From NCBI GenBank assembly GCA_030698625.1, contig JAUYMS010000028.1:3854-67853 (forward strand): a stretch of DNA of 64,000 nt, given 5' to 3'. The stretch is from Candidatus Omnitrophota bacterium (lineage in GTDB: Bacteria > Omnitrophota > Omnitrophia > Omnitrophales > Aquincolibacteriaceae). The notes beneath the pieces are model-generated. The model worked only from the letters and a program-made list of their open reading frames with translations. It was not told the origin of the DNA and did not search any database. Made by a program: the position numbers and the translations under genes. This document shows, piece after piece, positions 10,194 to 60,116 of this stretch (position 1 is its first letter; every line of letters begins with the position of its first letter).

Positions 10194-10202
10194 GTTGCCC
10201 TT

Positions 10203-14880: not shown

Positions 14881-14883
14881 GTG

Positions 14884-15534: not shown

Positions 15535-15552
15535 GGGTCTCTCCTTTAGGGG

Positions 15553-16194: not shown

Positions 16195-16226
16195 TCGGTT
16201 TCTCCTTTAATTTACGCCTACTGGTT

Positions 16227-17252: not shown

Positions 17253-17401
17253 ATGGCTGGGTATTATATCGGCGCGATTCGGAGGTTGTAAAGCGGTTAT
17301 TTTTGTAATCCATGTAGGCACAATATCTTACGATGATGCTGTAAGTTATTTAAAACAATGCGCTTAGCTCGATATAAAGCTGAATGGCCCCTTAATAAGG
17401 G

Positions 17402-28270: not shown

Positions 28271-28505
28271 AGACAGGCTTTGCCGGGTCCTTGCCGAAGT
28301 ATTCGGTGTGCCGGCGGAACAGATTAACGAAGACAGCAGCCCGGATACCATCGAGAATTGGGATTCCGCATCGCATATCAATATGATCTTGTCTCTTGAA
28401 TCGGAGTTCGATGTGAAGCTGACCCCCGAGCATGCCATGGAGATGTTGTCGGTAAAGCTCATTCGGATGATTTTGGAAGAGCTCGGGGTTAAAGATTTCA
28501 AATGA
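28248..28505 (+). CDS. Acyl carrier protein
   Basis: 85 aa. 'ENWDSASHINMILSLE' phosphopantetheine-attachment Ser context. Confidence 0.7.
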   Translation: MMMSPMTEDRLCRVLAEVFGVPAEQINEDSSPDTIENWDSASHINMILSLESEFDVKLTPEHAMEMLSVKLIRMILEELGVKDFK

Positions 28506-29683
28506 AGACAGCCGTCCGGTCACAATATGAAGTAGGCCAGGTATTTCGGACCAGCATCGATGTGGACCAGAAACTGGTCGAACGGTTTGCCGATTTTTCC
28601 GGCGACCGTAATCCGCTTCATATGGACGCAGGCGAAGCTCAGTCTTACGGGTATGCGCGCAGGGTTGCGCACGGGGGAATCCTCATCGCCTTTTTATCAA
28701 AACTGATCGGTATGGAAATCCCCGGACCGGGAGCGGTGTGGATGAACCAGCAGGTGGATTGGACAAGTCCGGTGTTTGTCGGAGATGTCGTGGAATTGGC
28801 TGTGACCGTCGAGAAAATATCGACCGGCGCGGGAATGCTTACGCTGGATGTCACGGCGGCAAATCAGAAAGGGAAGACGGTTATGAAAGGGAAAGCGAAT
28901 GTTAAGGTTGCGGAAAAGATCGAGCAGAAAAGTGCTCAAAAAAAAAGCGTGAAGACGGCCCTCGTAACGGGTAGCGGCCGCGGTATCGGCGCAGAGATAG
29001 CTCGCAAACTGGCGGCAAGCGGGGTGAAGGTTATCGTCAATTGTCGCAAGTCGGTTCACGAGGCTGAGGGGGTTCAGCAGGAGATCAGGGCCTTGGGCGG
29101 CACAGCGGAAGTGATGCAGGCAGATCTCTCGGACTATGCGCAGACGGAAGCGATGATCGATAGCATTATTAAGCAATTCGGTAGTTTGGATATTGTGGTG
29201 CATGGCGCGTCGCCTATGGTCACTCCGGCGATGGCCGATCAAGTGACGCAGGAGCGGCTCGATCATTTTTTTAGGGCTTATGTCGGAGGGGCCAGGAGTC
29301 TTGTCGCAAAGGCGGCGCCTGCGATGGCGGAGAGAAAATTTGGGCGCTTCATTTTCTTGGGAACGTCGTTCATGTTTGGAATCCCTCCGGCAGGCATGAG
29401 TGCTTACGTTACCGCAAAGGAAGCCTTGTGGGGATATGTGAAGTGTCTGGCCGCAGATCTCGGGCCGTCGGGCATTACATCCAATATGGTCTCTCCGAGC
29501 ATGACGGTCACTGATTTTACCGCCGATATTCCGGCTCGCATGAAAGAGCTCGAGGCACGGAAGAGTCCGATGCGACGCATGGCTTCCGTGGCAGATACCG
29601 CAGCAGCCGTGGTTTTCTTGGCGGGCGAGGATGCGTCTTATATTAACGGCAGCAATCTGCCGGTCACCGGAGGGCCCATTTGA
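28502..29683 (+). CDS. MaoC-like hot-dog dehydratase fused to FabG-like SDR reductase
   Basis: N-terminal hot-dog region 'GDRNPLHMD...'. C-terminal 'ALVTGSGRGIGAEIARKLAASG' SDR. Confidence 0.75.
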   Translation: MKTAVRSQYEVGQVFRTSIDVDQKLVERFADFSGDRNPLHMDAGEAQSYGYARRVAHGGILIAFLSKLIGMEIPGPGAVWMNQQVDWTSPVFVGDVVELAVTVEKISTGAGMLTLDVTAANQKGKTVMKGKANVKVAEKIEQKSAQKKSVKTALVTGSGRGIGAEIARKLAASGVKVIVNCRKSVHEAEGVQQEIRALGGTAEVMQADLSDYAQTEAMIDSIIKQFGSLDIVVHGASPMVTPAMADQVTQERLDHFFRAYVGGARSLVAKAAPAMAERKFGRFIFLGTSFMFGIPPAGMSAYVTAKEALWGYVKCLAADLGPSGITSNMVSPSMTVTDFTADIPARMKELEARKSPMRRMASVADTAAAVVFLAGEDASYINGSNLPVTGGPI

Positions 29684-30681
29684 GCCAAGCTATCGAGCAA
29701 ACCAGGGTACTGGTAAGCGGTTGCGGATCGATCGGTAAGCGGCATATCGCAAACTTGCAAGCGCTGGGGCTCTCCGCGATTACGGCAGTAGACCCGGATA
29801 AGAGCGCTTGCATGGAGGCCGAGCGAAAACTTGGCGTCCGGATAGCGGTCTCTTTTGAGGAAGCTCTTCGGGAGCGGCCCGACATTGTTGTCGTGGCCAG
29901 CCCCAATCACGTGCACATGGAACAGGCATTGCAAGCGGCGAAGGTTGGCGCGGACCTTTTCATCGAGAAACCTCTATCTCATGAAATGACCGGTGTCAAC
30001 GAGCTCTTGACTTACGTGGAGCAGAACCGGCTTGTGGGTATGGTGGGTTGCAATATGCGTTTTCATCCGGCGATCTCGAAGATAAAAGAGGTCCTGTCCG
30101 AGCAAAAACTAGGCAAGGTCTATTCCGTTCAAGCCGAGTTTGGCTTTTATTTGCCATGGTGGAGGCCGGGCAAGGACTACCGTGAAAATTACGGCGCCAG
30201 AAAAAGGACGGGCGGAGGTGTGATTCTTGATGCCATCCATGAAATCGATGCCTTGTGGTGGTTTTTTGGCCCCGTTCGCCAGGCAATGACGTTGTCGCAG
30301 AAGCAAAGTGATCTCGAAATTGAAACTGAGGACGTGGCGGAAATCTCGCTCAGGTTTGCAAACGGTGTGCTGGGGCATATTCACCTGGACTATCTTAACC
30401 GCCATTATGCACGTAACCTTAAAATTATCGGCAAGCAGGGGACGCTCGAGTGGGACTGGAACCAGGAATTCATACGGATCTTTCGCGAAGGGGACAGCCC
30501 GGCCGAGGAGTATGCGGTGCCCGCTCGTGAGAACCCGAACGAAATGTATCGTGATGAAATGCGCCATTTTCTCAGCTGCGTGGCAGAAAGAAAAACTACG
30601 ATTTGTCCGATTGAGGATGCGGCTGAAGTTCTGAGCGTGGCGATGTCGGCAAAAAGATCTTCAGAGATGGTACCGCAATGA
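29680..30681 (+). CDS. Gfo/Idh/MocA-family oxidoreductase
   Basis: 'VLVSGCGSIGKRHI' Rossmann fold and 'EKPL' motif. Confidence 0.75.
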   Translation: MSQAIEQTRVLVSGCGSIGKRHIANLQALGLSAITAVDPDKSACMEAERKLGVRIAVSFEEALRERPDIVVVASPNHVHMEQALQAAKVGADLFIEKPLSHEMTGVNELLTYVEQNRLVGMVGCNMRFHPAISKIKEVLSEQKLGKVYSVQAEFGFYLPWWRPGKDYRENYGARKRTGGGVILDAIHEIDALWWFFGPVRQAMTLSQKQSDLEIETEDVAEISLRFANGVLGHIHLDYLNRHYARNLKIIGKQGTLEWDWNQEFIRIFREGDSPAEEYAVPARENPNEMYRDEMRHFLSCVAERKTTICPIEDAAEVLSVAMSAKRSSEMVPQ

Positions 30682-31523
30682 AAAAGAGTATTTTTGTCCA
30701 GGCCCGGATGGGATCAAGCCGATTGCCCGGAAAGGTGATGGCGGATCTCTTCGGGCGCCCGCTTCTCGAGCGTCTGGTGGAGCGGCTGCGGCGATCGACG
30801 AGCGCAGATCAAGTGGTGGTGCTTACTAGCAGTGCGGAAGCGGATCAAGCGATTGAGGACTTGGCATATGCAATGGACGTTCCCGTTTTCCGGGGCGACG
30901 AAGATGATGTGTTAGACCGTTATTTTCAAGCGGCAAAGAAGTTTCAGCCGGATGCCATTATCCGCGTCACAGGGGATTGCCCTCTGATTGACCCAAGAGT
31001 CATTGACCAGGTTGCGTCTTTTTTTGAAACGGAAGACCGGGATTATGTGAGCAATATCCTTATCCCGACTTTTCCCGACGGGTTGGATGTGGAGATTTTT
31101 AGGATTGAGGCGCTCGAGAGCTGCTGGCGTAACGCGCGGGAAAAGTACCAGCGCGAGCATGTGACGTCGTACTTCTACGAAAACCCGGACCTCTTTCGTC
31201 TGGCTAATTTCCGGTCCCCTGTCGATCGTTCCGCTATGCGCTGGCTAGTCGACGAGGCTCCGGATCTCGTGTTTGTGCGAAAAGTGTATGAGCGTCTTTA
31301 TCCGGATAACGCAACATTTTTATACGCCGACATTCTTGCCCTTTTGGACCGCGAGCCGGAATTACAGACATTGAATGCGCACCTGCGCAGGAACGAAGGA
31401 TTTTTTAAGAGTAAAGACGGAGCGTCGGCCCATGCGGCGGAAGATGCGCGTTCCGGCTGGGCGCGCTATATCCAAGAAATTATGCAGAAAAAGGGATGTG
31501 AGCTATATGAATCTGTCGGTTGA
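30678..31523 (+). CDS. pseF: CMP-nonulosonic acid cytidylyltransferase (acylneuraminate cytidylyltransferase / SpsF family)
   Basis: 'VQARMGSSRLPGKVMADLFGRPLL' N-terminal signature. Confidence 0.75.
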   Translation: MKKSIFVQARMGSSRLPGKVMADLFGRPLLERLVERLRRSTSADQVVVLTSSAEADQAIEDLAYAMDVPVFRGDEDDVLDRYFQAAKKFQPDAIIRVTGDCPLIDPRVIDQVASFFETEDRDYVSNILIPTFPDGLDVEIFRIEALESCWRNAREKYQREHVTSYFYENPDLFRLANFRSPVDRSAMRWLVDEAPDLVFVRKVYERLYPDNATFLYADILALLDREPELQTLNAHLRRNEGFFKSKDGASAHAAEDARSGWARYIQEIMQKKGCELYESVG

Positions 31524-32799
31524 CGGGTTGAAGGAATCGGTTGCGTTGTGGAAAAAGGCCGCGGACTTGATCCCCGCAGGAACCCAAACGCTCAGTAAGG
31601 CGCCCAATCAATTTGTTGAAGGGGTTTACCCGAAATTCATCGAGCGGGGTAAGGGAAGCCATGTCTGGGATGTTGACGGTAACGAGTATATCGATTACCC
31701 GTTATCACTAGGCGCTGTTTTACTGGGTCACTGCTACCCGGTGGTGGATAAGGCGATTACAGACCAGCTGAAGAAGGGGATCGTTTTTTCGTTGATGCAC
31801 CGGTTGGAAGGTGAAGTCGCCGAGCGGGTTCGCGCGCTGGTTCCTTGTGCCGAGCAGGTGCGGTTTTCAAAGACAGGCTCGGAGGTGACTACGGCGGCCG
31901 TGCGTGTTGCGCGTGCGGCGACGGGCCGTAAGAAGATTGCCTACTGCGGGTATCACGGATGGCATGATTGGTATGCCGTGACCACCACACGTTCCAAGGG
32001 GATTCTTCCCGAACTTTCGGAGTACATGCTCCCTTTTACCTATAACGACATTACGACACTGGAAAGGATTTTTCAGGAGAACCCCGATGAGATTGCGGCG
32101 ATCATCATGGAGCCGGTTGGGCTTGAGGCCCCGAAAGGGGATTTTCTTAACAGTGTCCAGAAATTGACGAAACAACACGGCAGTCTGCTTATCTTTGACG
32201 AAATGATCACGGGTTTCCGCATGGCGAGGGGCGGGGCCCAAGAATATTATGGAATAACCGCGGACCTGGCGACCTTCGGGAAGTCGGTTGCCAACGGAAT
32301 GCCGCTCAGTATCTTGGCGGGTAGGAAGCAATTCATGAAAGAATGCGAAGAGATCTTTTTTTCCACAACATTCGGAGGCGAGGCATTATCTCTGGCGGCT
32401 GCGCGTGCGGTCTTGGATGAGATCGTTGAAAAGCCAGTGGTGGCTCATCTGTGGACTCAGGGGAGGAAATTAAAAGACGGTTTTGCACAACTTGCGGCGG
32501 AAACCGGAGTGCAAGCCGCGTTTTCAGGGTTTCCGGTTCGGCAGTTTCAGGTATTTAGGGATGCTGAGGGCGAAATCTCTACAATTCATAAAGCTCTGTT
32601 CTGGCAGGAAACGATCAAGCGTGGTGTGCTTTTCGGAAACGCTCAAATGATTTCATATTCGCATTCTGACGAAGACATCAAACGCACTCTGGAAGTGTGC
32701 GGAGAAGCCCTGCATGTTGTAGGGTGCGCCGAAAGAGAAGGCCGTTTGGAAACGGCTATGGAAGGAAAACTTCCTACAGAGATATTCAGAAAGCCCTGA
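31507..32799 (+). CDS. Class III PLP aminotransferase (glutamate-1-semialdehyde aminomutase-like)
   Basis: The signature region of glutamate-1-semialdehyde aminomutase-type class III PLP aminotransferases ('YCGYHGWHDWY'). Internal ATG 31507 chosen as start. Confidence 0.7.
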   Translation: MNLSVDGLKESVALWKKAADLIPAGTQTLSKAPNQFVEGVYPKFIERGKGSHVWDVDGNEYIDYPLSLGAVLLGHCYPVVDKAITDQLKKGIVFSLMHRLEGEVAERVRALVPCAEQVRFSKTGSEVTTAAVRVARAATGRKKIAYCGYHGWHDWYAVTTTRSKGILPELSEYMLPFTYNDITTLERIFQENPDEIAAIIMEPVGLEAPKGDFLNSVQKLTKQHGSLLIFDEMITGFRMARGGAQEYYGITADLATFGKSVANGMPLSILAGRKQFMKECEEIFFSTTFGGEALSLAAARAVLDEIVEKPVVAHLWTQGRKLKDGFAQLAAETGVQAAFSGFPVRQFQVFRDAEGEISTIHKALFWQETIKRGVLFGNAQMISYSHSDEDIKRTLEVCGEALHVVGCAEREGRLETAMEGKLPTEIFRKP

Positions 32800-32806
32800 G
32801 GAATTC

Positions 32807-33418
32807 ATGATAGCGATTATTGATTATGAAATGGGAAATTTAAAGTCGGTGGCAAATGCCTTTAAGGCCGTGGGTGTTGAGCCCTGCATTACACGTGATC
32901 CGTCTGAGCTTTCAGCGGCGGATCGGATTGTTTTGCCGGGGGTTGGCGCATTCGGCAACGGAATGGAGCGGCTTCGACGATTGGGTTTTGTCAGGGCCTT
33001 GGAGGAAAACGTCCGAGAGAAAAAGAAACCCTTCTTGGGTATTTGCCTTGGGATGCAGCTTCTGGCAACCAAAGGTTTTGAGTTCGGAGAGCATGCAGGG
33101 CTGGGCTGGATTGAGGGAGAGGTCCGCAGACTCGAATCCCCGGACTTGCCCGTGCCGCATGTCGGATGGAATGACGTGGCTGTCACACAGTCGTCGCCGC
33201 TGCTCGAGGGGATAGGCGATAAAGCCGACTTCTATTTTGTTCACAGTTATCATTTCGAAGCAGCGCAACCCGATAGCGTTACAGCCACTTGTGAGTACGG
33301 TCAACGCTTCGCAGCGAGCGTGAGCCATGGGAATATCTTTGGGGTCCAGTTTCATCCCGAGAAGAGTCAGAAGGCCGGTAAACATTTGCTCGAAAACTTC
33401 CTGAGGATCAGCGCGTGA
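32807..33418 (+). CDS. HisH-like class I glutamine amidotransferase subunit
   Basis: 'MIAIIDYEMGNLKSV' plus the Cys-His-Glu triad context. Sits in a sugar locus, not a his operon. Confidence 0.8.
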   Translation: MIAIIDYEMGNLKSVANAFKAVGVEPCITRDPSELSAADRIVLPGVGAFGNGMERLRRLGFVRALEENVREKKKPFLGICLGMQLLATKGFEFGEHAGLGWIEGEVRRLESPDLPVPHVGWNDVAVTQSSPLLEGIGDKADFYFVHSYHFEAAQPDSVTATCEYGQRFAASVSHGNIFGVQFHPEKSQKAGKHLLENFLRISA

Positions 33419-34236
33419 AGAAAAACCGTTTAATCCCTGTACTCCTTTTGAAGAACGGCTGGCTGGTACAGAGCAAATCATTCCAGCGTTATCAGAATCT
33501 AGGCGACCCGATTACATCTGTTCGGCGCCTGAGTAATTGGGCGTCAGACGAGCTCATCTTTTTGGATATGACGCGAGAGGGAGGCTATGACATGCGTCGG
33601 GATGACAAAGGCCACCCGAATCGGCATGATATCCTGGAGATTATCGAAGACGTTTCTAAGGAATGCCTAATGCCGATTGCAATCGGCGGGCGCATTAGAA
33701 CGCTTACGGATATTATGGTAAGGCTGGCGTCGGGCGCCGACAAGGTTTGCGTTAATACGAAACCGTTGGAGGACCCCGCGTTTATTACCGAAGCCGCGAG
33801 GGAATATGGGTCCCAATGCATTATCATTTCGATCGACGCGAAGGTTTCGGGCGAGGGGCGGTGGGAGGTCTATAAGGACGGCGGCAAGGTCGCGACAGGA
33901 CGGGACCCGGAGTCTTGGGCACGTGAAGTGGAATCGCGCGGTGCCGGCGAAATTCTGATCAATTGTATTGACCGCGACGGTGCGCGTACCGGCTACGATC
34001 TGGATCTCGTAGGCCGCGTCAGTGATGCCGTGAGTATTCCGGTGATTGCCATGGGCGGCGTTGGGGAGTGGGAGCATTTTGCCGAAGCGCTGAGCCGCAC
34101 AAAGGCGGATGCGGTCGCGGCTGCGAACATCTTTCATTACTATGATCAGAGCGTCTATTTGGCAAAGAAGTACCTGCACGACCGGAACTTCAACGTGCGC
34201 GCTCCGGACCTCATACCCGTTGAAGTGACAACGTGA
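33415..34236 (+). CDS. HisF-like cyclase/synthase subunit
   Basis: 'LIPVLLLKNGWLVQSKSF' (beta/alpha)8 HisF-like N-terminus. Confidence 0.8.
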   Translation: MKKNRLIPVLLLKNGWLVQSKSFQRYQNLGDPITSVRRLSNWASDELIFLDMTREGGYDMRRDDKGHPNRHDILEIIEDVSKECLMPIAIGGRIRTLTDIMVRLASGADKVCVNTKPLEDPAFITEAAREYGSQCIIISIDAKVSGEGRWEVYKDGGKVATGRDPESWAREVESRGAGEILINCIDRDGARTGYDLDLVGRVSDAVSIPVIAMGGVGEWEHFAEALSRTKADAVAAANIFHYYDQSVYLAKKYLHDRNFNVRAPDLIPVEVTT

Positions 34237-35273
34237 CTTCGATAACAGATCCCAAGCCTAACGATGCATGCGCCCCGCTCCGGGAGTCCGCTATTCGCGC
34301 TCCGGAACTCAGGCCGGAGGCACTCGAGTGCCAGGAAAGAGACCGTCAGTTCCTGCTTGCACAGCAGCACCGCTTTGCCGAAGTCGCTTGCCCTGCTTGT
34401 GAAAGTGACAAAAAGACGATCAAGTTTATTAAGGCCGATTTTCATTATTGCAGCTGCTCTGACTGTGCGACCGTGTATATCAGCCCGAGGCCGAGCGCTG
34501 AGCTCTTGGAAGAGTTTTATTCAATTTCAGAGAATTACATTTATTGGAATAAATATATTTTTCCCGACTCCGAGAAGGTCAGACGCGAGCAGATCTTCAT
34601 ACCGCGCGTCAATCGGATTCTGGACATTTGCCGTAAATACAGCGTCGGAAGGGAAGCTATTATGGAAGTGGGGGCGGGCTTTGGCATCTTCTGCGAAGAG
34701 ATGATAAAAAAGAGACAGTTTGAGCGGGTCATCGCCGTCGAGCCTACAGCAGATCTTGCGGCGACATGCCGGTCCAGAGGTCTCGATGTGTTGAATCTGC
34801 CGGTCGAGAAGGTTCAACTTCCAGAGCGCTCACTGGACGTCGTGGTGAGCTTCGAAGTGATCGAGCATCTTTTTTCACCGCGCGACTTCGTAAGGGCTGC
34901 GGCCCGGTTTCTGAAGCCGAAGGGTTTGTTTATTCTTACTTGTCCTAATATTATGGGGTTTGAAACACAAGTCGCGGGCCCTGCGACATGCACCTTTCAC
35001 TACGAACATTTGAATTATTTTCATCCCGGCTCAGTTTCCCGGCTTCTGGCGGATGTCGGGTTCAAGATTCACGAGATCCTGACGCCCGGCGAATTGGATG
35101 TGCAGGTCGTGAAACGTGTTTTTGATTCGGGCGATATCACACTCGAGGATAACCGGTTCTTCCGGATGCTCCTCAGCTCAGGCCGGGATGAAACGCTTAA
35201 CGCATTTCAGCGTTTCCTAGCCGAGAACGGTCTTTCGTCTCATATGTGGATAGTGGCTTCGCGTAATAATTAA
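34233..35273 (+). CDS. Zn-ribbon class I SAM methyltransferase (paralog 3 of 3)
   Basis: 'CPACESD...CSDCATVYISPRP' and 'MEVGAGFGIF'. C-terminal 'GLSSHMWIVASR'. Confidence 0.8.
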   Translation: MTSITDPKPNDACAPLRESAIRAPELRPEALECQERDRQFLLAQQHRFAEVACPACESDKKTIKFIKADFHYCSCSDCATVYISPRPSAELLEEFYSISENYIYWNKYIFPDSEKVRREQIFIPRVNRILDICRKYSVGREAIMEVGAGFGIFCEEMIKKRQFERVIAVEPTADLAATCRSRGLDVLNLPVEKVQLPERSLDVVVSFEVIEHLFSPRDFVRAAARFLKPKGLFILTCPNIMGFETQVAGPATCTFHYEHLNYFHPGSVSRLLADVGFKIHEILTPGELDVQVVKRVFDSGDITLEDNRFFRMLLSSGRDETLNAFQRFLAENGLSSHMWIVASRNN

Positions 35274-35282
35274 GGAGATTCC

Positions 35283-36425
35283 ATGCGTTATTGCAAACGT
35301 TGTGTTTACCCGGAAGTGGCTGTTAACCTTTATTTTGACGAGGACGGGATTTGCAGTGCATGCCGGACATTTGAAAAATTCGAGGCCCTGACGGACGATT
35401 TTTGGATTGAGCGCAAGAAAAAGTTCGAAAGGCTTCTAGAAGAGGCTCGCAGGACCAAATCGATCTACGACTGTATTATTCCGGTCAGCGGCGGCAAGGA
35501 CAGCTATTACCAGACCCATAAGATGGTTACTGAATACGGCCTGAAGCCGCTTTTGGTGACTTATCACGGCAATAATTTCCTGACCGAGGGAGATTATAAC
35601 CGCGACCGCATGCGGCAAGTCTTCGACGCCGATCATTTAGTTTTTGGGCCGAGCGTTCACGTGCTGAAGAAGCTCAACCGCCTATGCTTCCGCAAGATGG
35701 GGGATATGAATTGGCATGCTCACTGCGGCATCTTCACGGTGCCGATTCAGATGGCCGTGCGCTTCGGTGTACCCCTCGTGATATGGGGAGAAACGAATTG
35801 GGACATCTCGGGAATGTACGAACCTGAGGATTTCGTTGAGTTCAGCGCTCGCGTTCGCCACGAGCATGATCTTCGCGGATTCGAATGGTATGACATGATG
35901 AATGACTCTTCCGAAAAGCTGACTGAAAAAGACATGCTGTGGGCCCAGTATCCGTCAGACGAGGAAATTCTGAAGGTGGGAGTTCGGGGGCTCTATGTCG
36001 GAAATTTCTTCAAGTGGGACCCAAACTGGCACGCAAAGATGATTCAGGAAAGGTATGGGTGGAAGCCGATCGAGGGGGTCTTCGAGCGCACGTATCGTTC
36101 GTTTTCAAATCTGGACGACCGCTATGAAAACGGCGCGCACGATTTGCTGAAATATATCAAGTTCGGCTATGGACGTGCCTCTGACCATGGGTCAAAGGAT
36201 ATTCGCATGGGTTATATGACGCGCGAGGAGGGGATCGAAAAAATTCGAAAACATGACCACATCATCCCGAGCGACCTTGATTATTGGTTGGAATATGTGG
36301 GTATGAAGAAGGAGTTGTTTTGGGAAATCGCAAACTCATTTCGCGACAGCCGAGTGTGGCGCCAAGAAGACGGCGTGTGGGTAAAAGATAATATTTGGGA
36401 TGAGGTCGCTTCTGCTGCTAAATGA
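35283..36425 (+). CDS. N-acetyl sugar amidotransferase (PP-loop ATPase; WbpG/WbuZ/PseA-like)
   Basis: N-terminal 'CKRCVYPE....CSAC' Zn ribbon and PP-loop 'IPVSGGKDS'. Confidence 0.8.
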   Translation: MRYCKRCVYPEVAVNLYFDEDGICSACRTFEKFEALTDDFWIERKKKFERLLEEARRTKSIYDCIIPVSGGKDSYYQTHKMVTEYGLKPLLVTYHGNNFLTEGDYNRDRMRQVFDADHLVFGPSVHVLKKLNRLCFRKMGDMNWHAHCGIFTVPIQMAVRFGVPLVIWGETNWDISGMYEPEDFVEFSARVRHEHDLRGFEWYDMMNDSSEKLTEKDMLWAQYPSDEEILKVGVRGLYVGNFFKWDPNWHAKMIQERYGWKPIEGVFERTYRSFSNLDDRYENGAHDLLKYIKFGYGRASDHGSKDIRMGYMTREEGIEKIRKHDHIIPSDLDYWLEYVGMKKELFWEIANSFRDSRVWRQEDGVWVKDNIWDEVASAAK

Positions 36426-38347
36426 GTACACCCGTTAAGTATTACTTTCTAGAAACGTGCTCGCCGCGCTTTACGGAACGGGATGCGAAAGTAATCTCGC
36501 TTACGCCGCAGGTGTCCTACGAGCTTGGCCGGCGTGGTATTCCTTACCGGATCCTGGAAGACTTCTATAGTGAGCGGGATCTACGCAGCGGGGAAGACGA
36601 GTATTTTACTGACCAACTTAACTGGTTTAAGCGATTCGATGCTTTTTTGGGAGAGCACATCGCCTGGTCTTCGAGCGACAGATGTGCGCTGGCGCGTACC
36701 CACTACGACCACCTAAAGTATTTCGTCGACACCATCATCATTCAATCCTACATCTTATCGAAAGTGATTGCGTCGATTGCTCCCGAAAATCCCTCGATCG
36801 AATATATCAAGGCATCGTACTTGAGCGAGCGTAAGCAGACCATGGAGCAATTCCGATACGGGGAGCAATCAACTTTGTTCGCTGAGCTCATGCCCTATGT
36901 TTGCAAGAAATTTCCGAATGTGAAGTTTACGGTTACCTGCGAAGAAGTGACTCCTTCGGACAAGGCAAGCACAACCCCCGGGACAGTCCCTGGATGGTTT
37001 GAGGCCGGCATGCAATACGTCAAGGAGCGCGTTCGAGCCGTTTACTATCCGCTGAAATATCGCTCGTCGTCAAGTGGTGGATCGCCTGCGAATAATCTGC
37101 GTTGTCTCTTCATCCATACGGGGAGCAGGCATCTCGACCCGGTGATCCGCCAATTAATCGGAGCTGGTGCTGTAGTCTATGGCCTGAATGGCGATGCGGC
37201 CTATCGCTTGGACTGTATCCGTCCCGGGCCAAACGATAAGATCAACGCAGCGCAACAGGATGAGTTGAGCGGTGATCTGAAGCGGCAATGCGAGGCGGCC
37301 TCTCGGGAATTGTTCGGAGGAGAAGCCGAGATTGTAAGGTGGATAGAAAATCGATGCGGGCTCCAACTGCGAGACTTTTTACGACCTTACCTCACGGCCT
37401 TTGTGAAAGATGCCCTCTCGGAGACCCTGAAGTTGGCGAACGCATTCAAGCATTTCTACGAGGAAAGGAACATCACTCATGTTTTTAGTCACACCGGCTC
37501 GGATAAGCACTCCCGCGCGGGGATTTTAGGTGCGAAAATGGTTGAGGGCACTATGTCGGTGGGGATACAGCACGGTTGTGAAATATTCGAGGACAAGGTC
37601 TGGGATATTAGGGATATTGATACTTTTGATCATTATCTGGCGACAGACGATTATTCGCAGGAAAAATTCAGGAAGTCCCTGGAGTTTGACTATGTGGGTC
37701 ACCACCGCATCGAGCAGTCGTCGCATTATCTTCAGAGTATTAAGGCGCGGCACGCGGCACTTCCGAGGAGACGGGGATCCGCGAGGAAGTGTTTCCTCTA
37801 TCTGCCGTCCAAGCTGTCCGTACACCGGCGCTGTTTTAACAGCATGGTTTATCCGGTTCTGTGGTACTACGAGTTTCAAAAGAATCTCTTAGATTTTATG
37901 GGAAGCCAGGCCGCGGAATACGACTTCATTTACAAACAAGCCCCTGCGAGGAATCCGTATGCCAAGGAATCCGTTATACGCTATTTACACGACCGTCAAT
38001 TTAGTAACATTAGGGTGGAAACGGCACCTCCCGTTGAATTCTTCAACACCGTAGACGGGGTTATCATGGACCGTGCCACGACAGCCTTTTTTGAAGCGGC
38101 TGTTTGCAACGTCCCGACTCTGGTCATCTATCCTTCTTTCATGGGCGAGATCATCAATGAAATGACAAGCGCGGAAAATAGGCGATGCACCGCGTCATTT
38201 TCTTCCTGGGAAGAAGCCTTTCGGAACATCGCGGAGTTCATCAGAGAGCCCTCGCGTAGACATACCCCTAAACTCAGCCTCACGAAGGACAGTGTCGTGG
38301 ATGCCGTAGCGAAGATGTCGGCAAATATCCTGGGATCCTCTGTGTAG
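36422..38347 (+). CDS. Hypothetical 641-aa soluble protein, candidate glycosyltransferase (GT-B-like C-terminal half)
   Basis: No motif I can assign confidently. Sits between pse/acetamidino genes and the flippase. The C-terminal 'VIMDRATTAFFEAAVCNVPTLVIYPSF' resembles GT-B / capsule-synthesis family donor-binding segments. Confidence 0.4.
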   Translation: MSTPVKYYFLETCSPRFTERDAKVISLTPQVSYELGRRGIPYRILEDFYSERDLRSGEDEYFTDQLNWFKRFDAFLGEHIAWSSSDRCALARTHYDHLKYFVDTIIIQSYILSKVIASIAPENPSIEYIKASYLSERKQTMEQFRYGEQSTLFAELMPYVCKKFPNVKFTVTCEEVTPSDKASTTPGTVPGWFEAGMQYVKERVRAVYYPLKYRSSSSGGSPANNLRCLFIHTGSRHLDPVIRQLIGAGAVVYGLNGDAAYRLDCIRPGPNDKINAAQQDELSGDLKRQCEAASRELFGGEAEIVRWIENRCGLQLRDFLRPYLTAFVKDALSETLKLANAFKHFYEERNITHVFSHTGSDKHSRAGILGAKMVEGTMSVGIQHGCEIFEDKVWDIRDIDTFDHYLATDDYSQEKFRKSLEFDYVGHHRIEQSSHYLQSIKARHAALPRRRGSARKCFLYLPSKLSVHRRCFNSMVYPVLWYYEFQKNLLDFMGSQAAEYDFIYKQAPARNPYAKESVIRYLHDRQFSNIRVETAPPVEFFNTVDGVIMDRATTAFFEAAVCNVPTLVIYPSFMGEIINEMTSAENRRCTASFSSWEEAFRNIAEFIREPSRRHTPKLSLTKDSVVDAVAKMSANILGSSV

Positions 38348-38349
38348 TC

Positions 38350-39882
38350 ATGAAGACATCAAGCGGTGGTCGCGCGCGAATCGCCAAGGATGCGGGTTTG
38401 TATCTAGCCGGATCTTATGGCGCTCAGTTCTTTGATATCATTAACGGAATTCTTATCCGGCGATTTCTCGGACCGGAGAATATGGGCATCTGGGCGTTCC
38501 TTCAGGTAATTTTGAATTACGCGAAGCATTCGGCGCTGGGTGTTACGGCGGCAACATCAAGAGATGTGCCGTATTACCGCCGCAAAGGTGAAAATGACAA
38601 GGCCGAACGCGTTAAGAACATGGTGTTTAGTTTCACGGTTGTTACAGCTACGTTAGCCGGGCTGGGGGTTATCGTCTATGCGTTGATGAATCGAGATAAA
38701 TATGATACCCCATTCTTTTTCGGCCTTGTGGTAATAGGAATCCTTATCGTCTTGCAGCGTCTGTTTAATCTCCACATAGTTCTGCTGCGCGCCCTCAAGG
38801 AATTTGCATTCGCCTCTACGGCCAATGTTTGTTCTAGTGTGCTTACGGTCCTGTTCACGGTGAGTTTGGTTTGGCGTTTCGGGCTCTATGGTCTTTTTGC
38901 AGGGCTTATCTTGAACTATATCCTGATGATTGCCGGCATCAGCATTAAATCGGGAATTCGTTTCCGTTTTATTTTCCGATTCGGGGAGTTGTCTCCGATA
39001 TTTAGCCTTGGTTTTGCCATGTTGGTATACGGTGTACTCACAACGATTTTGATGAGTGTGGACCGTATCATGATTACGAAGTATATGGGTTTTGAGGCTC
39101 TCGGGATTTACAGTATCGCGCTGATGGCGGGCAATTATCTTTTTAGTTTGCCGACAATGCTGGCCGTGGCTTTCTCCCCGTATTTACAAGAGGCCTATGC
39201 GGAAAGAGATGTCGCGAAGGATCTGGAGAAATTCCTCGTGGTGCCGACACTGGTGATTGGGTATCTTTTTCCGTGCCTCATCGCTCTTGTGTGGGTGGTG
39301 TCGGACTGGCTCATTCCGTTGCTTTTGCCCGCCTATGTCGCCGGCATTCCTGCCCTTAAGTGTCTTATCCTAAGCAGCTTTTTTCGAGGCCTCTTGCACC
39401 CGTTTCTTTCTTTTTTTGTGACAGTTCGAAAACACTGGCACCTATGCCCTATCCAGGGATTTCTGGCACTCTTATGCTTCGGGCTGACTTGGGCCTTTAT
39501 GAAGAGCGGGATGGGATTGCTGGGGGTGGCTCTCGCAAGCGTGATTACGTACGGATTGGGGTTTGGGCTTATTTCGGCCTATTGCTATCGGCGAATCCAG
39601 TCTTTGAAGAAGGCTCTTGGGATTTACATCAGGATATTCGGTGTGTTTGTTTATTTTTCGGGCGCACTGTACCTCATGGACTCTTATGCACAGACTTTTC
39701 CTCCGACGATACTTCGGTTTTCTTTGCAGTTTGCAGTGTTCATGGTGCTGATGCTGCCGTGGATATTTCTGGCGGAGAGGGAAACGAAAGCCTTAACGAC
39801 GCTAAGGGCGGTTGTGAAGAGTTGGCTCGAGAAGCGTGCTAACCGGGGAAACCCTTCAGTTCCGAACGAAGAAAGTCAATAA
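38350..39882 (+). CDS. Wzx-like oligosaccharide flippase (polysaccharide biosynthesis protein, MOP superfamily)
   Basis: About 14 predicted TM helices. N-terminal 'RIAKDAGLYLAGSYGAQF' is typical of Wzx proteins. Confidence 0.75.
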   Translation: MKTSSGGRARIAKDAGLYLAGSYGAQFFDIINGILIRRFLGPENMGIWAFLQVILNYAKHSALGVTAATSRDVPYYRRKGENDKAERVKNMVFSFTVVTATLAGLGVIVYALMNRDKYDTPFFFGLVVIGILIVLQRLFNLHIVLLRALKEFAFASTANVCSSVLTVLFTVSLVWRFGLYGLFAGLILNYILMIAGISIKSGIRFRFIFRFGELSPIFSLGFAMLVYGVLTTILMSVDRIMITKYMGFEALGIYSIALMAGNYLFSLPTMLAVAFSPYLQEAYAERDVAKDLEKFLVVPTLVIGYLFPCLIALVWVVSDWLIPLLLPAYVAGIPALKCLILSSFFRGLLHPFLSFFVTVRKHWHLCPIQGFLALLCFGLTWAFMKSGMGLLGVALASVITYGLGFGLISAYCYRRIQSLKKALGIYIRIFGVFVYFSGALYLMDSYAQTFPPTILRFSLQFAVFMVLMLPWIFLAERETKALTTLRAVVKSWLEKRANRGNPSVPNEESQ

Positions 39883-40882
39883 TAAGCCGCGTCACTTCCG
39901 CATGGCCGCTGCTATTGAGATGGGTGTCCAGGGGAAAGTAAAGAGTTCCATAATCCTCCCTGGTCCTAAAAACTCTCCAAAGACTTAGTAGCGGGATAGT
40001 CCTGCTCGCGGCGTAGCGCTCCAAATAGGTATGCGTCAGGAATTGTTCGGGTTTGAGTATCTCCTCACGGCGGGGGATGTAGATAATGGCGAATTGAATG
40101 CCTCTGCTATCGGTAAAGCCTTTGATGCGCTCAAGCCACTCTGCTGTAGCGGCAAATTCCGTGTCGGTGATTGTGTACGGGATAACGAAATTGCGCTTGA
40201 AGTTTACGACGAACGCATAGAGGGCGCTTCGGCCATAGAAAAGATGATCAAGCGTTTGGCTGATCCGGCCAAACGCCCGATAGAAAAATGAAAGAAATGG
40301 CGACGGATTATAGTGGTTTGTCTTATCAAGGGCCTTCTGAAAGTTGTCTTGAATGTCATTCTGGAAAAAACAGAGCACTACGGAATCCGGGGAGTACTTG
40401 ATCCCTTCTGACTGCAGAAAACGAAATTCATCGGCAGTTGACGAACCGGGCGCGCCGCCGTTGATAGCTTCGCCGTAGGCCGCGATCTTCTTGTTGACCC
40501 CCGCCACAAAAGTTTGGTGTTCCTCTACGCCCGTTCCGTAGGTGAATGAATCTCCGAGAAACAGGATGCGGTAGCGTGAAGGCGACTTTTCGTAGGGCGT
40601 CTCGGGATTTCGCAACCCTTTGGTGTTAATGCCGACCGTCATTTCGTACTCGCGTCTTTTGACGACTGCCTGGCTGCCCGGGATATTCCATTCTCCGAGA
40701 GTCGGGTGCTTGCCGAAAGTCGGCTGTGACGAGGGATGGCGGATGTTGAATTGATGATTGAGGAATTCGCTGCGCGCCGGCGAAGGGAATATTCGAAAAG
40801 CAATTTCGAGGAAAAGAATGAATATCAGCGTTGAAATTGCGGCTGCGGTGATGTTATTCGCTATTTTCGTTTTTGTGCTCAT
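39839..40882 (-). CDS. Membrane-anchored SGNH/GDSL hydrolase (paralog 1 of 3)
   Basis: N-terminal TM helix. 'ILFLGDSFTYG' block I. C-terminal 'DTHLNSSGH' DxxH block V. Confidence 0.7.
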   Translation of the reverse strand: MSTKTKIANNITAAAISTLIFILFLEIAFRIFPSPARSEFLNHQFNIRHPSSQPTFGKHPTLGEWNIPGSQAVVKRREYEMTVGINTKGLRNPETPYEKSPSRYRILFLGDSFTYGTGVEEHQTFVAGVNKKIAAYGEAINGGAPGSSTADEFRFLQSEGIKYSPDSVVLCFFQNDIQDNFQKALDKTNHYNPSPFLSFFYRAFGRISQTLDHLFYGRSALYAFVVNFKRNFVIPYTITDTEFAATAEWLERIKGFTDSRGIQFAIIYIPRREEILKPEQFLTHTYLERYAASRTIPLLSLWRVFRTREDYGTLYFPLDTHLNSSGHAEVTRLIIDFLRSELKGFPG

Positions 40883-43368
40883 GCCGCTATTTTTTTCCGC
40901 CCCGCTTTTTTCCGCTTCGTAGTTTTTGACGCCCATAGAAAGAGGCATGCGCTGACGACCAGTCCCGCGCCGTACGGCACCCGCGGGAATGGATCGAGAT
41001 AAAAACGGACGACATGATTACCGGGTGGAACACGGACGGCCCTAAAGGCGTGATAGGCAATGTAGAGCGGTGTGTCCCTGCCGTCAAGAGTGCTTTTCCA
41101 GCCCGGATGATAGGTGTCTGTGAGGACAAGGATCCTTTCATCGTCTGTGTGAACTTCAACTTCAACTCGGTGGGGGGTGTACTCGGCGATCGTCACCTTA
41201 TCCTCGGCTGAGAGCGCCTTGGAACTGATTGCGGGGGCGTTTTTACCTTCGAGTATGGCTACTTCTCGCGGATCAGTGCTGCTGTCTTCGAGCCATGCCA
41301 ATGATTGAGCCGCATCTCGCGCGACGGCGGACTCGGCAACCAGAAATGCGCGGTCCAGTGCATTCCGGTTCTGGTAAACGAGAAATTCCGTGTCTTCAAA
41401 AACGGGAGTGCGCCCCGGGAGAATATCGGGCTTTGTTGTTATGACGTATTTCACGTTAAGTAGATCTGCGAGCTGATCATCGTACTGGTAAATGTCATGA
41501 AGGCGGATGGTATCAATCGCCTCATTGTGCGCAAGCAGTTTGAAGACATCGCTGTAGCGCCTTAGCGTCAGCGCTTGATACCCGTGAACGGAAGACAGGC
41601 CATGCACTAACTGCTGATCCGCGGGAAGGAACTGGGTGTGCCCCCAGGGGAAACCGACCTCGTCCCTGGGTTTCAAGGAGAGGAAGCGGAAGTATGACGC
41701 GTCTTGTTTGAGAAAGGCGATCGTTGGGTTGACGGGATACGCAGTGTTACGCGGCACGAGAGTGTTGAACGGGAGGGGGTGGGCCACAAAGCCATCCCAT
41801 ATCACCATTCCAAAGAAAACAATACCAAGTACGAGTCTTGGGGCCTTCCGTTTTTTGAAAGTCACAAACAGAACAGTGCCTGCCCCGTAGAGGATAAGCG
41901 GTACGAATATAGCCGGGGATCGCCAGTTTGCCCATGTCTCGAGCCATAGGAGAAAGTCAGTTATGCGCTCACGGTAAAAACTCTCGGTCTGTTGATAAGC
42001 GCCGCGCGTCATGATGAAGCCGAGCGTCTTTTCATGGAGAGCTTCGAGCGCAAAAGAATTAATAGCCATAACGATAAGATCCTTGATCAGAAAAAACGCG
42101 AGGAGGATCAAGAGAAATCTTGCGAATCGCCTCACCCAAGTTGCGGCCAGGGTATGCGGTGAACTTGTAACCGTGATACTGTTCATAAAGGCGGCCATGC
42201 CGGCGGCCGCAAGAATGGGTATCGTGACGGTCGTGAGCACAGTCATCCGTTGCGTGTTGATGAGCATGTTGACGAGCGGGATATCACGCAAGAGCGGCAA
42301 GATAAATACCTCGCCGCCCAGCACATAAGCGAGTGTGGCAAGAAAGGTAATCCAGTGCGGCAGCAGCCACGCGGTGATCTTGCGGGCAGACCAGGCGCAG
42401 CAAATAAAGAAAGCGGCAAACAGCCCCGGGTACCAGAAGTCGTGCAGACGGATCTTCCGCCCTGACATTGCAACGCCGATCGCTTGCATGAGCCGATCAT
42501 GAATGTGAGGGGATTGGATTGAATGGTGTGTCAGAAAGTCCGGAAATAGTACGGTTAAAAGACTGAAAGGACTGATGAAAAGCGGGGTCGTTTCCGCCAA
42601 CGTCTCGCGCGTCGAGTTTAATCCCACGACGCCGAGAATATAGGTCCGAAACCACACCACGGATAGAAACGTCACTATGTAAGTTAACGCATAGAAGAAT
42701 AGCTGCCGTCTGCCGCCCGCCGACTCATCATTTGATTGCAGAATCCGAATAAAGAAGTAGACGGTAGCGATGGGGATGAGATAAATAGGGTAATTGGCAT
42801 GGGAGCCCAGGAAGAGCAAGGCAGTGCTTGCTGTGGCGAGAAGTAAATAACGCGTCCTTCTGGTTTCGATGAGGCACTCGAAGAAGAGCAGCACCAACGG
42901 GAATAAGAAGAGTTGAATCTGGGGTTCCACGAGACAATCGGTGACCCATTCCGATCGCATGAAAAGAATGGCTCCAAAGAGACTCGCGATGCGGTGCCCT
43001 GTCATTCGCGATAAGTAGGCATACATGCAGAGTCCGGCGAGGAGATACGTCAAAATGAAAATAAGAAACCAAGCGGTTTCCGTCTGAAACAATAGAATGA
43101 GCGGCATAAACAAAAGCCAGGCGGGATTCGATACAGCCGTGTCCGCCATGTTGCCGGCCACCGATCCTGTGACCCACCACACGGGGAAATGGCCGGCCAA
43201 TGCCCAACGCTTGAAATAGGCCATGGCAGGGTAGGACATGAATCGCCCGTCCGTATGTAGCGGCATCGTCCCGGAAACGATCGGCTCCCAGAACACGACA
43301 AGAGAGACAGCCGCTAGCACGACGAGGCTCAGCGCAAGTTCGTAGGATTTTTTGGTGGAATGGCTCAT
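40879..43368 (-). CDS. YfhO-family GT-C membrane glycosyltransferase (second copy), 829 aa
   Basis: Polytopic N-terminal half with a YfhO-like block 'FPVWWVTGSVAGNMADTAVSNPAW'. Large C-terminal periplasmic domain. Paralogous in architecture to 796..3141. Confidence 0.65.
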   Translation of the reverse strand: MSHSTKKSYELALSLVVLAAVSLVVFWEPIVSGTMPLHTDGRFMSYPAMAYFKRWALAGHFPVWWVTGSVAGNMADTAVSNPAWLLFMPLILLFQTETAWFLIFILTYLLAGLCMYAYLSRMTGHRIASLFGAILFMRSEWVTDCLVEPQIQLFLFPLVLLFFECLIETRRTRYLLLATASTALLFLGSHANYPIYLIPIATVYFFIRILQSNDESAGGRRQLFFYALTYIVTFLSVVWFRTYILGVVGLNSTRETLAETTPLFISPFSLLTVLFPDFLTHHSIQSPHIHDRLMQAIGVAMSGRKIRLHDFWYPGLFAAFFICCAWSARKITAWLLPHWITFLATLAYVLGGEVFILPLLRDIPLVNMLINTQRMTVLTTVTIPILAAAGMAAFMNSITVTSSPHTLAATWVRRFARFLLILLAFFLIKDLIVMAINSFALEALHEKTLGFIMTRGAYQQTESFYRERITDFLLWLETWANWRSPAIFVPLILYGAGTVLFVTFKKRKAPRLVLGIVFFGMVIWDGFVAHPLPFNTLVPRNTAYPVNPTIAFLKQDASYFRFLSLKPRDEVGFPWGHTQFLPADQQLVHGLSSVHGYQALTLRRYSDVFKLLAHNEAIDTIRLHDIYQYDDQLADLLNVKYVITTKPDILPGRTPVFEDTEFLVYQNRNALDRAFLVAESAVARDAAQSLAWLEDSSTDPREVAILEGKNAPAISSKALSAEDKVTIAEYTPHRVEVEVHTDDERILVLTDTYHPGWKSTLDGRDTPLYIAYHAFRAVRVPPGNHVVRFYLDPFPRVPYGAGLVVSACLFLWASKTTKRKKAGRKKIAA

Positions 43369-43459
43369 GGTGATAACTGTAACGGCAGATGATACTTGAT
43401 TCGATCGGGAACCTCAAGAACATGTGGTCAAGGTGGGATTTGACTCCTATAATAAAAAG

Positions 43460-44683
43460 ATGAAAAAAGCCGAAAAGAACAGTACCCGGAACTGGATGCT
43501 CCTCGCGGCGGCTGTCGTCGCTCCACTCCTAATTGCTGAAATTGCATTGCACGGGTTTATCCCGGCAGCAGATCGGCCGGAGGCTTTTGCTCATCAGTTA
43601 AGCGAAAACCCCAAACTCTTTTATGATCCTGTGCCGAGAGCGAGTCGGGAAGTCACCTATTTTGAGGGGACCGTGGATGAGACCGCGGTCCGTTATGAGA
43701 TCAATGCGGCCGGTTTCCGGGATCGGGATTATTCGGTCAAGCCGCCTAGCGGCGTGGAGCGAATTGTTTTTCTTGGAGATTCGATTGTTTTTGGTTTTTC
43801 AGTAGACGGGCACGACGCTATGCCTAAACAGCTGGAACAGCGATTTCGGGATCATGATGATGCGACGCAAGTTCTTAATATGGGGGTATCGGGTTATGAC
43901 ACCGAGCAGGAGGTGGAATTTTTTAAGGTCAAAGGCGCCGCGTATGAACCGGATCTGGTTGTTGTGGGGTACGCATTGAATGATGCCCGTTATGCCTCGT
44001 GGGAACTCGATGTCTTACGGAATAATTGGGAGGCATTTGTCCGGCAGCCTGCGACGAACATTCGAACAAAGACCCTAGCATTCCTATTCAAAAACTCCCG
44101 AATCCTCGATCTTCTCAACCGACAATTTCATATTCAGAAGAGGGCATCATTCCTTCAGGCCTATCCGCTACTGTTTGATTTCGTTGAGGAGAAGTACTTG
44201 AGTCAGCGAGATCCGGAAGGGAGCCCGTATCGCCGTTTGGAAGCACTCATACAGCAAGAGGCGACTCGCCTGGGGACACCCGAACCGGCTCTCAACTACA
44301 TGATGCAGGGCATCGGTTTCCGTAATGAGAATCCTGTATTCTCATCGCACTGGCAGTTGAGTGAAGCCGCTTTTCGGGATCTGGCCCAGTTGTCGAAAGA
44401 GCGGGGGTTTGGCGTTGCGGTGGTACTATGGCCGCTCATGAGTTCCATGGCGACGTATCCGCTGGGTCCCTTGCATCAGTTTTTGCGAGTTAAGTTGGAG
44501 GCGATGGGCTTTGAAGTCATTGACCCGAAAGACTATCTGCAAGAACTCTGGATGAGTCATGGCGATAAATTGAGTCTCGACGGTATCCATTTTACACCCT
44601 GGGCGAATGAGAAAATCTCGAACTTCCTTTATCCCCGAATAAGAGACATTCTGAGGGCTCAAGCCTCAGATAATGATGGCTAG
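43460..44683 (+). CDS. Membrane-anchored SGNH/GDSL hydrolase (paralog 2 of 3)
   Basis: 'IVFLGDSIVFG' block I and 'DGIHFT' block V with an N-terminal TM helix. The alternative start 43424 was not preferred. Confidence 0.65.
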   Translation: MKKAEKNSTRNWMLLAAAVVAPLLIAEIALHGFIPAADRPEAFAHQLSENPKLFYDPVPRASREVTYFEGTVDETAVRYEINAAGFRDRDYSVKPPSGVERIVFLGDSIVFGFSVDGHDAMPKQLEQRFRDHDDATQVLNMGVSGYDTEQEVEFFKVKGAAYEPDLVVVGYALNDARYASWELDVLRNNWEAFVRQPATNIRTKTLAFLFKNSRILDLLNRQFHIQKRASFLQAYPLLFDFVEEKYLSQRDPEGSPYRRLEALIQQEATRLGTPEPALNYMMQGIGFRNENPVFSSHWQLSEAAFRDLAQLSKERGFGVAVVLWPLMSSMATYPLGPLHQFLRVKLEAMGFEVIDPKDYLQELWMSHGDKLSLDGIHFTPWANEKISNFLYPRIRDILRAQASDNDG

Positions 44684-47447: not shown

Positions 47448-47459
47448 AGGGAGAACCCA

Positions 47460-50067: not shown

Positions 50068-50075
50068 CGAGCGTC

Positions 50076-57636: not shown

Positions 57637-57655
57637 AGGTGTCTCTGTGGTGAAA

Positions 57656-60106: not shown

Positions 60107-60116
60107 GCCGAGGAAA

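Follow-up and report, generated by a model that had tools for sequence, protein, structure and literature searches.

A stretch of 64,000 nucleotides from a Candidatus Omnitrophota bacterium (assembly GCA_030698625.1, contig JAUYMS010000028.1, positions 3,854 to 67,853; hereafter the window) carries at 36422-38347, on the forward strand, the gene for a 641-residue soluble protein. Analysis of this open reading frame (ORF), its translation and homologues, an AlphaFold model and Foldseek comparisons places the protein, hereafter the target, in an unnamed family of GT-B fold proteins of about 620 residues. We propose, at a probability of roughly 60%, that it is a cytoplasmic glycosyltransferase that acts before Wzx flipping, its putative donor being a cytidine monophosphate (CMP)-activated derivative of pseudaminic acid (Pse), a nonulosonic acid (NulO). 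A first-pass annotation had named the protein a candidate NulO transferase, and this reading is supported by four independent lines: the GT-B fold, similarity to the LIC12162 and BFO_1060 families, synteny, and the lack of any other soluble candidate in the 64 kb.

The ORF comprises 641 codons and a stop codon and fills exactly 36422-38347. Its start codon shares bases with the TGA of the WbuX-like ORF upstream (ATGA), and two bases separate its TAG from the ATG of a MOP-family (Wzx-type) flippase (38350-39882, forward strand; PF13440, E 1e-17; PF01943, E 2e-11). These junctions place the gene in an uninterrupted, translationally coupled string, and indicate that the target is co-translated with WbuX and Wzx. 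A scan for promoters and terminators gave counts near chance and found no strong forward-strand terminator flanking the gene. The maximum 19-residue Kyte-Doolittle mean is 1.5, with no segment above 1.6 and no transmembrane-like segment. The ORF, its hydropathy and the Pfam and PDB matches around it thus bear out the earlier description of a soluble 641-residue protein lying between the pse block and the flippase. Homologues match the target from residue 1 to about 620, and a chance or non-coding ORF is ruled out by this full-length conservation. An identical protein is on deposit as a hypothetical protein from a Candidatus Omnitrophota metagenome-assembled genome (MAG).

The target has no Pfam or NCBIfam match at E ≤ 0.01, the Pfam library scanned not including PF27859; in precomputed Pfam annotation, PF27859 was not found on the target or its two word-index relatives. 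Searching PDB sequences with the target or the family profile gave no significant match (mGluR5 matches at E 0.37 are noise). A word-indexed search returned only two relatives besides the target, at 24-27% identity, and a family profile of 136 sequences added none. An exhaustive HMMER search with a three-sequence profile against 1.84 billion cluster representatives yielded 1078 homologous representatives at E ≤ 1e-3; 660 of them reach ≤ 1e-10 and 260 reach ≤ 1e-30. Almost all have a length of 600-650 residues and match end to end; nearly all are metagenomic, and those sampled are unnamed. The target is therefore not an orphan, and this label from the first-pass annotation is true of the curated libraries (Pfam, NCBIfam and PDB sequences) only. 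The family thus spans more than 1000 sequence clusters, with no family-level relative in Pfam, NCBIfam or the PDB, mainly in uncultivated lineages. In GTDB it is carried by MAGs from Omnitrophota, Planctomycetia and Parcubacteria and from unclassified bacteria, and tblastn gave no match in annotated plasmids and phages. The literature searched contained no description of the family and no paper linking Omnitrophota with NulOs.

The sole invariant residue in the 136-sequence family alignment is His384 of a Q-H-G motif (codon at 37571-37573, forward strand), which is invariant across the LIC12162 family as well. At least 90% conservation is seen for P29, W68, D73, D103, K505, N529, D550, P552, E558 and F606. 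D550 (98%) and E558 (97%) delimit a D-x7-E motif, with which a C-domain helix begins; the motif reads D550-R-A-T-T-A-F-F-E558 in the target (38069-38095, forward strand) and D-x-P-S-T-x-x-F-E-A in the family consensus. Alignment conservation and modelled secondary structure define a family-specific N-terminal region, residues 1-339 (36422-37438, forward strand), which contains the first beta-strands, long helices and an alpha/beta insertion, together with the near-invariant P29, W68, D73 and D103. A conserved, putatively catalytic core follows at residues 340-597 (37439-38212, forward strand); it was delimited by hhalign and comprises the last N-domain strands and the C-terminal Rossmann domain.

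An AlphaFold model computed from the 136-sequence alignment had a mean predicted local distance difference test (pLDDT) score of 92.5 and a predicted template modelling (pTM) score of 0.93; a model from three sequences (pLDDT 42) was discarded. The model shows a pair of Rossmann-like alpha/beta domains. The C-terminal one (456-593) has six strands, and the last helix of the protein (625-640) returns to the N domain, as is typical of GT-B. His384 lies right behind an N-domain strand (378-382), and residues 45-350 or so form a long elaboration of helical and alpha/beta structure. The best 50 Foldseek matches in the PDB are all GT-B fold proteins, nearly all of them glycosyltransferases or uridine diphosphate (UDP)-sugar 2-epimerases, and include trehalose-6-phosphate synthases (OtsA), BshA, PglA, PimB', CalG1/G3, HMW1C/NGT, UDP-N-acetylglucosamine (UDP-GlcNAc) 2-epimerases and NeuC (E 8e-7 to 1.5e-4, about 10% identity, template modelling (TM) scores of 0.26-0.36 normalised to the query). 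Comparison with the viral library BFVD agrees, its named matches being mostly glycosyltransferases. On this model the fold class is settled as GT-B, and the non-transferase fold that would have spoken against the first-pass annotation did not appear. No solved structure is close to the target.

Membership of the transferase families that the first-pass annotation had listed for comparison was rejected, as none gave a Pfam signal: Maf/DUF115 (PF01973), KpsS/KpsC (PF05159) and TagF (PF04464) were unmatched in the target at E ≤ 0.01 and in eight members at E ≤ 1. No KpsS/KpsC-type protein is among the top PDB fold matches, and no TagF structure is among the best 50. A relation to Capsule_synth was rejected, since hhalign against a PF05159-positive protein from another family locus (L002:17087-18802; loci are numbered with the prefix L) returned a probability of 8.4%.

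A relationship to the LIC12162 family (TIGR04331), which surfaced through NCBIfam and precomputed annotation, is supported by profile-profile comparison. We aligned the family by hhalign with a LIC12162 alignment of 45 sequences, built from matches all carrying PF27859, and obtained a probability of 98.1% (E 7.9e-14) over 241 columns, covering query residues 340-597. Q-H384-G falls on the LIC12162 motif QHGGGYG and D550...E558 on D-H-x-x-T-x-F-L-E; when the cores of the two families are aligned together, the His stays invariant, and conservation is 90% or more for D403, D550, E558 and P565. The N-terminal ~340 residues did not align in hhalign, so that the two families show no shared N-terminal stretch of ~300 residues. 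Against PDB sequences the combined core profile gave no significant match; five of its seven weak matches were GT1-type GT-B transferases aligned on the D-x7-E helix, at E 0.16-1.8, and are suggestive at most.

Scanning 75 diverse family members against NCBIfam gave sub-threshold TIGR04331 matches in 22 (best E 3e-12; best member 45.9 bits against a 225-bit cut-off). Three gave sub-threshold C-domain matches to NF046086, 'BFO_1060 family glycosyltransferase' (best E 3e-6, 26.6 bits against a 200-bit cut-off). The only other model was PRK05365, with one marginal chance match in one member (E 0.005). The family thus falls below the whole-protein threshold of LIC12162 and shares a homologous core with the Q-H-G His and the D-x7-E motif. 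The target misses the thresholds of all curated families tested (LIC12162, BFO_1060, Maf, Capsule_synth and Glyphos_transf), but the core is homologous to LIC12162 and the genomic niche is the same, which points to a distinct, unnamed sister family of LIC12162 within a NulO-locus-associated GT-B superfamily. In one Parcubacteria locus (L005), a true LIC12162 gene (277-1992) and a member of the target family (9983-11878) occur together. The former, a 572-residue ORF, is a bona fide LIC12162 family transferase (TIGR04331, E 1e-113) that matches our family profile weakly and is recovered as a core homologue by hhalign (probability 96.7%). Because both genes are present in L005, the two families are not simply interchangeable.

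The BFO_1060 similarity leads to enzymes with genetic support. BFO_1060 is the strain 92A2 counterpart of Tannerella forsythia Tanf_01245 and TFUB4_00887 (PMC5420450, PMC5378307). Knockout and complementation have shown that deletion of Tanf_01245 or TFUB4_00887 removes the terminal Pse5Am7Gra or legionaminic acid (Leg) derivative from the Tannerella O-glycan (PMC5420450).

To describe genomic context, 93 family loci were gathered, 80 of them from a metagenome scan, and their ORFs were labelled by jackhmmer with the window's own proteins. After removal of four duplicate contexts, 46 loci had at least 10 kb of total flank; members scoring at least 400 bits were taken as clear. Within 10 kb, NeuB was found in 30 of the 46 loci, CTP_transf_3 in 26 and PseG in 18; a MOP flippase is present in 29 loci. 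At least one of NeuB, CTP_transf_3 and PseG was present in 33 of the 46, and near 27 of the 34 clear members. These figures are undercounts, because the window itself scores as NeuB-negative, its PseI lying 10.5 kb upstream. A flippase is the commonest immediate neighbour, directly adjacent to 29 of 76 full-length family genes (20 downstream, 9 upstream); the remaining neighbours are mostly NeuB, WbuX, DegT, CTP_transf_3, GNAT or methyltransferases. The clades of a neighbour-joining tree track context, that is, the neighbouring NulO-modification genes: the window's clade is associated with HisH-WbuZ-WbuX, and in other clades the gene abuts NeuB or has the flippase upstream. All three LIC12162 genes sampled sit after NeuB/CTP_transf_3, one of them directly before a flippase.

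The window co-encodes the target with a NulO synthase and a cytidylyltransferase (PseB/C/G/H/I and CTP_transf_3). Pfam and PDB matches assign the core pathway to 21249-25914 on the forward strand, with PseB (21249-22235; best PDB match Helicobacter pylori UDP-GlcNAc C6 dehydratase 2gn4, E 7e-122), PseC (22228-23385; a DegT-type aminotransferase by Pfam), a fusion of PseG with a PseH-like GNAT domain (23385-24872; UDP-sugar hydrolase 3hbm, E 1e-13) and PseI (24820-25914; E 5e-86 to the pseudaminic acid synthase 8h2c, with NeuB structures at about 1e-42). A complete predicted Pse core pathway upstream of the target is thereby confirmed at the level of gene content. Activation and modification genes, assigned by Pfam and NCBIfam, continue the same forward-strand string at 25896-36425 in the order GNAT, FkbH_N protein, MaoC+SDR fusion, GFO/IDH/MocA oxidoreductase, CTP_transf_3 cytidylyltransferase, class-III aminotransferase, HisH, WbuZ/HisF, methyltransferase and WbuX N-acetyl-sugar amidotransferase (TIGR03573, E 1e-93), after which comes the target.

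Two groups within this string deserve mention in their own right. At 26363-29683 the FkbH_N protein (635 residues) and the MaoC-dehydratase/SDR fusion (393 residues) lie within the Pse operon alongside HisH/WbuZ/WbuX, which suggests that the Pse of the window bears an acetamidino group and a glyceroyl or hydroxyacyl N-acyl group, resembling Tannerella Pse5Am7Gra; the genes for Am and Gra of the latter have been reported as unknown (PMC5378307). At 29680-32799, CTP_transf_3, the GFO/IDH/MocA oxidoreductase and the aminotransferase form a triad that recurs with NeuB, the aminotransferase being class III or DegT, in L002, L013, L022, L041, L058, L072, L076 and L092, and hints at an oxidation/transamination step on the (CMP-)ulosonic acid.

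Besides the target, the glycosyltransferases of the window are a pair of GT2 genes, of which one is cut off by the window edge, and membrane GT-C-like proteins. No other soluble candidate for NulO transfer was found in the 64 kb, so the earlier statement that no Pse transferase is otherwise evident holds.

These observations suggest how the target could act. It would take the CMP-activated, N-acyl-modified Pse, probably in an acetamidino form, that the upstream genes produce, and transfer it to a lipid-linked (undecaprenyl-diphosphate) oligosaccharide at the inner membrane face, after which the adjacent Wzx-type flippase would export the finished unit; we infer the identity of both donor and acceptor. 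Going by what is established for GT-B enzymes, the CMP-sugar would be held by the C-terminal Rossmann domain (K505, N529, D550-x7-E558), with D550-x7-E558 as the likely nucleotide/ribose-binding motif. His384 in the Q-H-G loop may serve in catalysis or phosphate contact, and the family-specific N-terminal ~340 residues may bind the acceptor. More tentatively, and with somewhat less than even confidence, we suggest that this undescribed glycosyltransferase family and LIC12162 together form a major overlooked superfamily of CMP-NulO (Pse/Leg-derivative) transferases for Wzx-dependent surface glycans, in which the N-terminal module sets acceptor choice and which merits a new CAZy glycosyltransferase (GT) family.

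Several observations weigh against a CMP-Pse transferase. The bacterial sialyltransferase motifs D/E-D/E-G and HP are absent from the family consensus, in which the invariant His is followed by Gly. The target itself has no TIGR04331 or NF046086 match at E ≤ 0.01, the BFO_1060 link is carried by 3 of 75 members, and the word 'transferase' in the LIC12162 family name comes from annotation. Structural similarity is low (TM 0.26-0.36, about 10% identity), and among the matches are GT-B enzymes that are not transferases, namely UDP-GlcNAc 2-epimerases and NeuC; the GT-B class also holds non-transferases such as epimerases and PseG. Some clear members (L011, L024, L026, L036 and L042) have no NeuB, CTP_transf_3 or PseG in the stored flank. 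In three of these and in L001, the order is PseB-like-GNAT-HisH-WbuZ-WbuX-amidohydrolase-formyltransferase, family gene, flippase (L024, L026, L042, L001), with no NulO synthase within the stored 10 kb. A divergent clade (L078-L093; for example L089:8840-10765), at about 240-260 bits to the profile, is flanked by methyltransferases on the opposite strand, is mostly NulO-negative and may use another donor. Finally, the loci are phylogenetically non-independent, and the context counts stand without a background rate of NeuB near random polysaccharide-locus genes.

Part of this evidence would fit a GT-B glycosyltransferase of the same glycan pathway that uses a different donor, a UDP- or guanosine diphosphate (GDP)-sugar, for example to add the sugar bearing the NulO or to glycosylate the NulO as acceptor, with transfer of the NulO itself left to an unrecognised enzyme. 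In fold the target comes closest to nucleoside diphosphate (NDP)-sugar enzymes of GT4, GT20 and GT1 type, some members have faint PF00534 or PF13579 matches, and Q-H-G and D-x7-E resemble the GT4-type motifs T-x-H-G and E-x7-E. The missing sialyltransferase motifs and the several family loci without NulO genes in the stored flank point the same way; in L002 a Capsule_synth-like protein, and in L005 the LIC12162 protein, could perform NulO transfer. Against this, the slot right after NulO synthesis and modification genes is kept across 21-37% identity, the window offers no other soluble candidate transferase for the NulO, and the sub-threshold NCBIfam similarity is to LIC12162 and BFO_1060 only, never to GT4 or GT1 models. 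We consider a different donor unlikely, though it is the main rival of our proposal.

A non-transferase role in NulO biosynthesis, as a hydrolase, a hydrolysing 2-epimerase (PseG-, NeuC- or LegG-like) or a CMP-NulO-modifying enzyme, would agree with the top target-normalised TM-scores, which belong to UDP-GlcNAc 2-epimerases and NeuC (0.51-0.59), and with the position of the gene among sugar-modification genes, translationally coupled to WbuX. It is made improbable by the PseG (3hbm match) and complete Pse route already in the window, by the size of the target, about twice that of such enzymes with a 340-residue extra N-terminal region, and by the absence of Epimerase_2 or Glyco_tran_28_C matches in the target or the members scanned. 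The flippase as commonest neighbour and the tandem two-module member P0004, typical of dual-linkage transferases, also speak for a transferase. An invariant His is a hallmark of TagF, and could be counted towards a TagB/TagF-like phosphotransferase that moves an alditol phosphate or sugar phosphate from a cytidine diphosphate (CDP)-activated donor. A phage CDP-glycerol glycerophosphotransferase stands at BFVD rank 22 (E 3e-3), CDP-OH_P_transf genes occur in L011 and L026, and the Tannerella enzymes are called TagB-like by CDD (PMC5420450). Such an activity is made very improbable by the lack of PF04464 and TagF structural matches noted above; nor does the annotated part of the window hold a gene for making CDP-glycerol or CDP-ribitol. 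Transfer of a CMP-activated Pse derivative remains the reading that we prefer.

Some family members depart from the simple architecture. P0004 (1274 residues, Omnitrophota MAG) is a tandem fusion of two full-length family modules (1-619 and 643-1273), an arrangement reminiscent of dual-module transferases. P0106 (L013:10001-12721) is a family protein with an extra N-terminal Rossmann-like domain of ~300 residues. This domain is encoded by a separate gene next to or near the family gene in L002 (11824-12927), L021, L022 and L072; the one in L072 has a weak match to TIGR04396, 'surface carbohydrate biosynthesis protein'. No such partner gene is present in the window.

The remainder of the window holds many sugar-nucleotide enzymes and several further features of a glycan region. 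The GT-C-type candidates are large membrane proteins, two YfhO-like and two PMT/PMT_2-like, at 796-3141, 3239-5092, 19252-20841 (+) and 40879-43368 (-). Three GDSL-like proteins are encoded at 39839-40948 (minus strand), 43424-44683 and 54612-55868. A divergent block on the minus strand at 13527-17321 encodes a HAD phosphatase, a nucleotidyltransferase, a transaldolase-like protein, an SIS isomerase and a GHMP kinase and resembles a separate sugar-nucleotide pathway of heptose type, and an HldE-like kinase/adenylyltransferase with a second SIS protein is found at 45906-48071. E1 dehydrogenase alpha-like (PF00676) and beta-like (transketolase domains) subunits surround a DAO-family flavin adenine dinucleotide (FAD) oxidoreductase at 49099-52338, which is unusual for a glycan locus. 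Two B12-binding radical S-adenosylmethionine (SAM) proteins lie at 5101-6405 and 60033-61937; elsewhere, radical SAM/SPASM genes occur directly upstream of the family gene in L011 and near the LIC12162 genes in L094 and L095. A 347-residue ORF among SDR/methyltransferase genes (57533-58576) partly overlaps the end of the upstream SDR ORF, has no Pfam match at E ≤ 0.01 and may be a mis-started gene or another unannotated family.

Pse and Leg transferases are very scarce relative to the well-known biosynthetic enzymes; those characterised are Maf and FlmG (flagellins), KpsS1 (GT118) and the Tannerella BFO_1060-type enzymes. They are wanted for making Pse/Leg glycoconjugates by chemoenzymatic routes, and also as markers by which surface glycan structures could be predicted from genomes. 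A large family in a conserved NulO-locus position, with a sequence bridge to LIC12162 and to the proven Tannerella enzymes, supplies concrete candidates. If our proposal is correct, more than 1000 clusters of 'hypothetical' proteins gain a function, as does, indirectly, the LIC12162 family, and heavily modified Pse is indicated as a surface decoration of Omnitrophota and other uncultured phyla. The finding is not surprising in kind; its yield is a large, testable candidate family for an under-identified enzyme class.

Compared with known systems, the target shares with the GT-B enzymes of GT4, GT20 and GT1 (BshA, PglA, OtsA, CalG) two Rossmann-like domains with a C-terminal helix that crosses back, a His that follows an N-domain strand and, in the C domain, an acidic-x7-Glu motif. 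The donors of those enzymes are NDP-sugars rather than CMP-NulO, and the target adds a large family-specific N-terminal elaboration. Maf (DUF115/MptE-like) and FlmG are flagellin transferases that move Pse or Leg from CMP donors. Maf is similar in length to the target, at about 600-650 residues, and its catalytic domain has a sialyltransferase-like non-GT-B fold, in contrast to the GT-B fold of the target. The target also differs from Maf and FlmG in its context, a Wzx-dependent polysaccharide locus with no annotated flagellin genes. CMP-activated donors and a (modified) GT-B fold are combined in the retaining pseudaminyltransferase KpsS1 (GT118) and in the KpsS/KpsC/WbbB Kdo (3-deoxy-D-manno-octulosonate) transferases (PF05159, GT99/GT107) (PMC12887879).

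The Tannerella BFO_1060 family (Tanf_01245/TFUB4_00887) resembles the target in being soluble and GT-B-like (TagB-like by CDD) and in being encoded directly after the CMP-NulO biosynthesis locus (PMC5420450). The Tannerella donor is an acetimidoyl/glyceroyl Pse, and the window encodes an acetamidino system and an FkbH-like enzyme. The Tannerella enzymes differ in their length of 442-445 residues and in their DXD, D/E-D/E-G and HP motifs (PMC5420450), which the target family lacks, and they serve a Bacteroidota protein O-glycosylation pathway. The LIC12162 family (TIGR04331; PF27859) is set apart by its motif QHGGGYG in place of QHG-x and by the N-terminal ~340 residues, which do not align, and the target misses the TIGR04331 threshold. 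In other respects LIC12162 parallels the target family, with a similar size (570-630 residues), a homologous core of ~250 residues, the invariant Q-H-G His and the D-x7-E motif. In Herbaspirillum, LIC12162-family genes lie beside neuABC and next to a 'surface carbohydrate biosynthesis protein' (PMC6679464), an occasional pairing that has its counterpart in the partner gene or fusion of the target family. Both families occupy the same genomic slot, after NeuB/CTP_transf_3 and beside a flippase.

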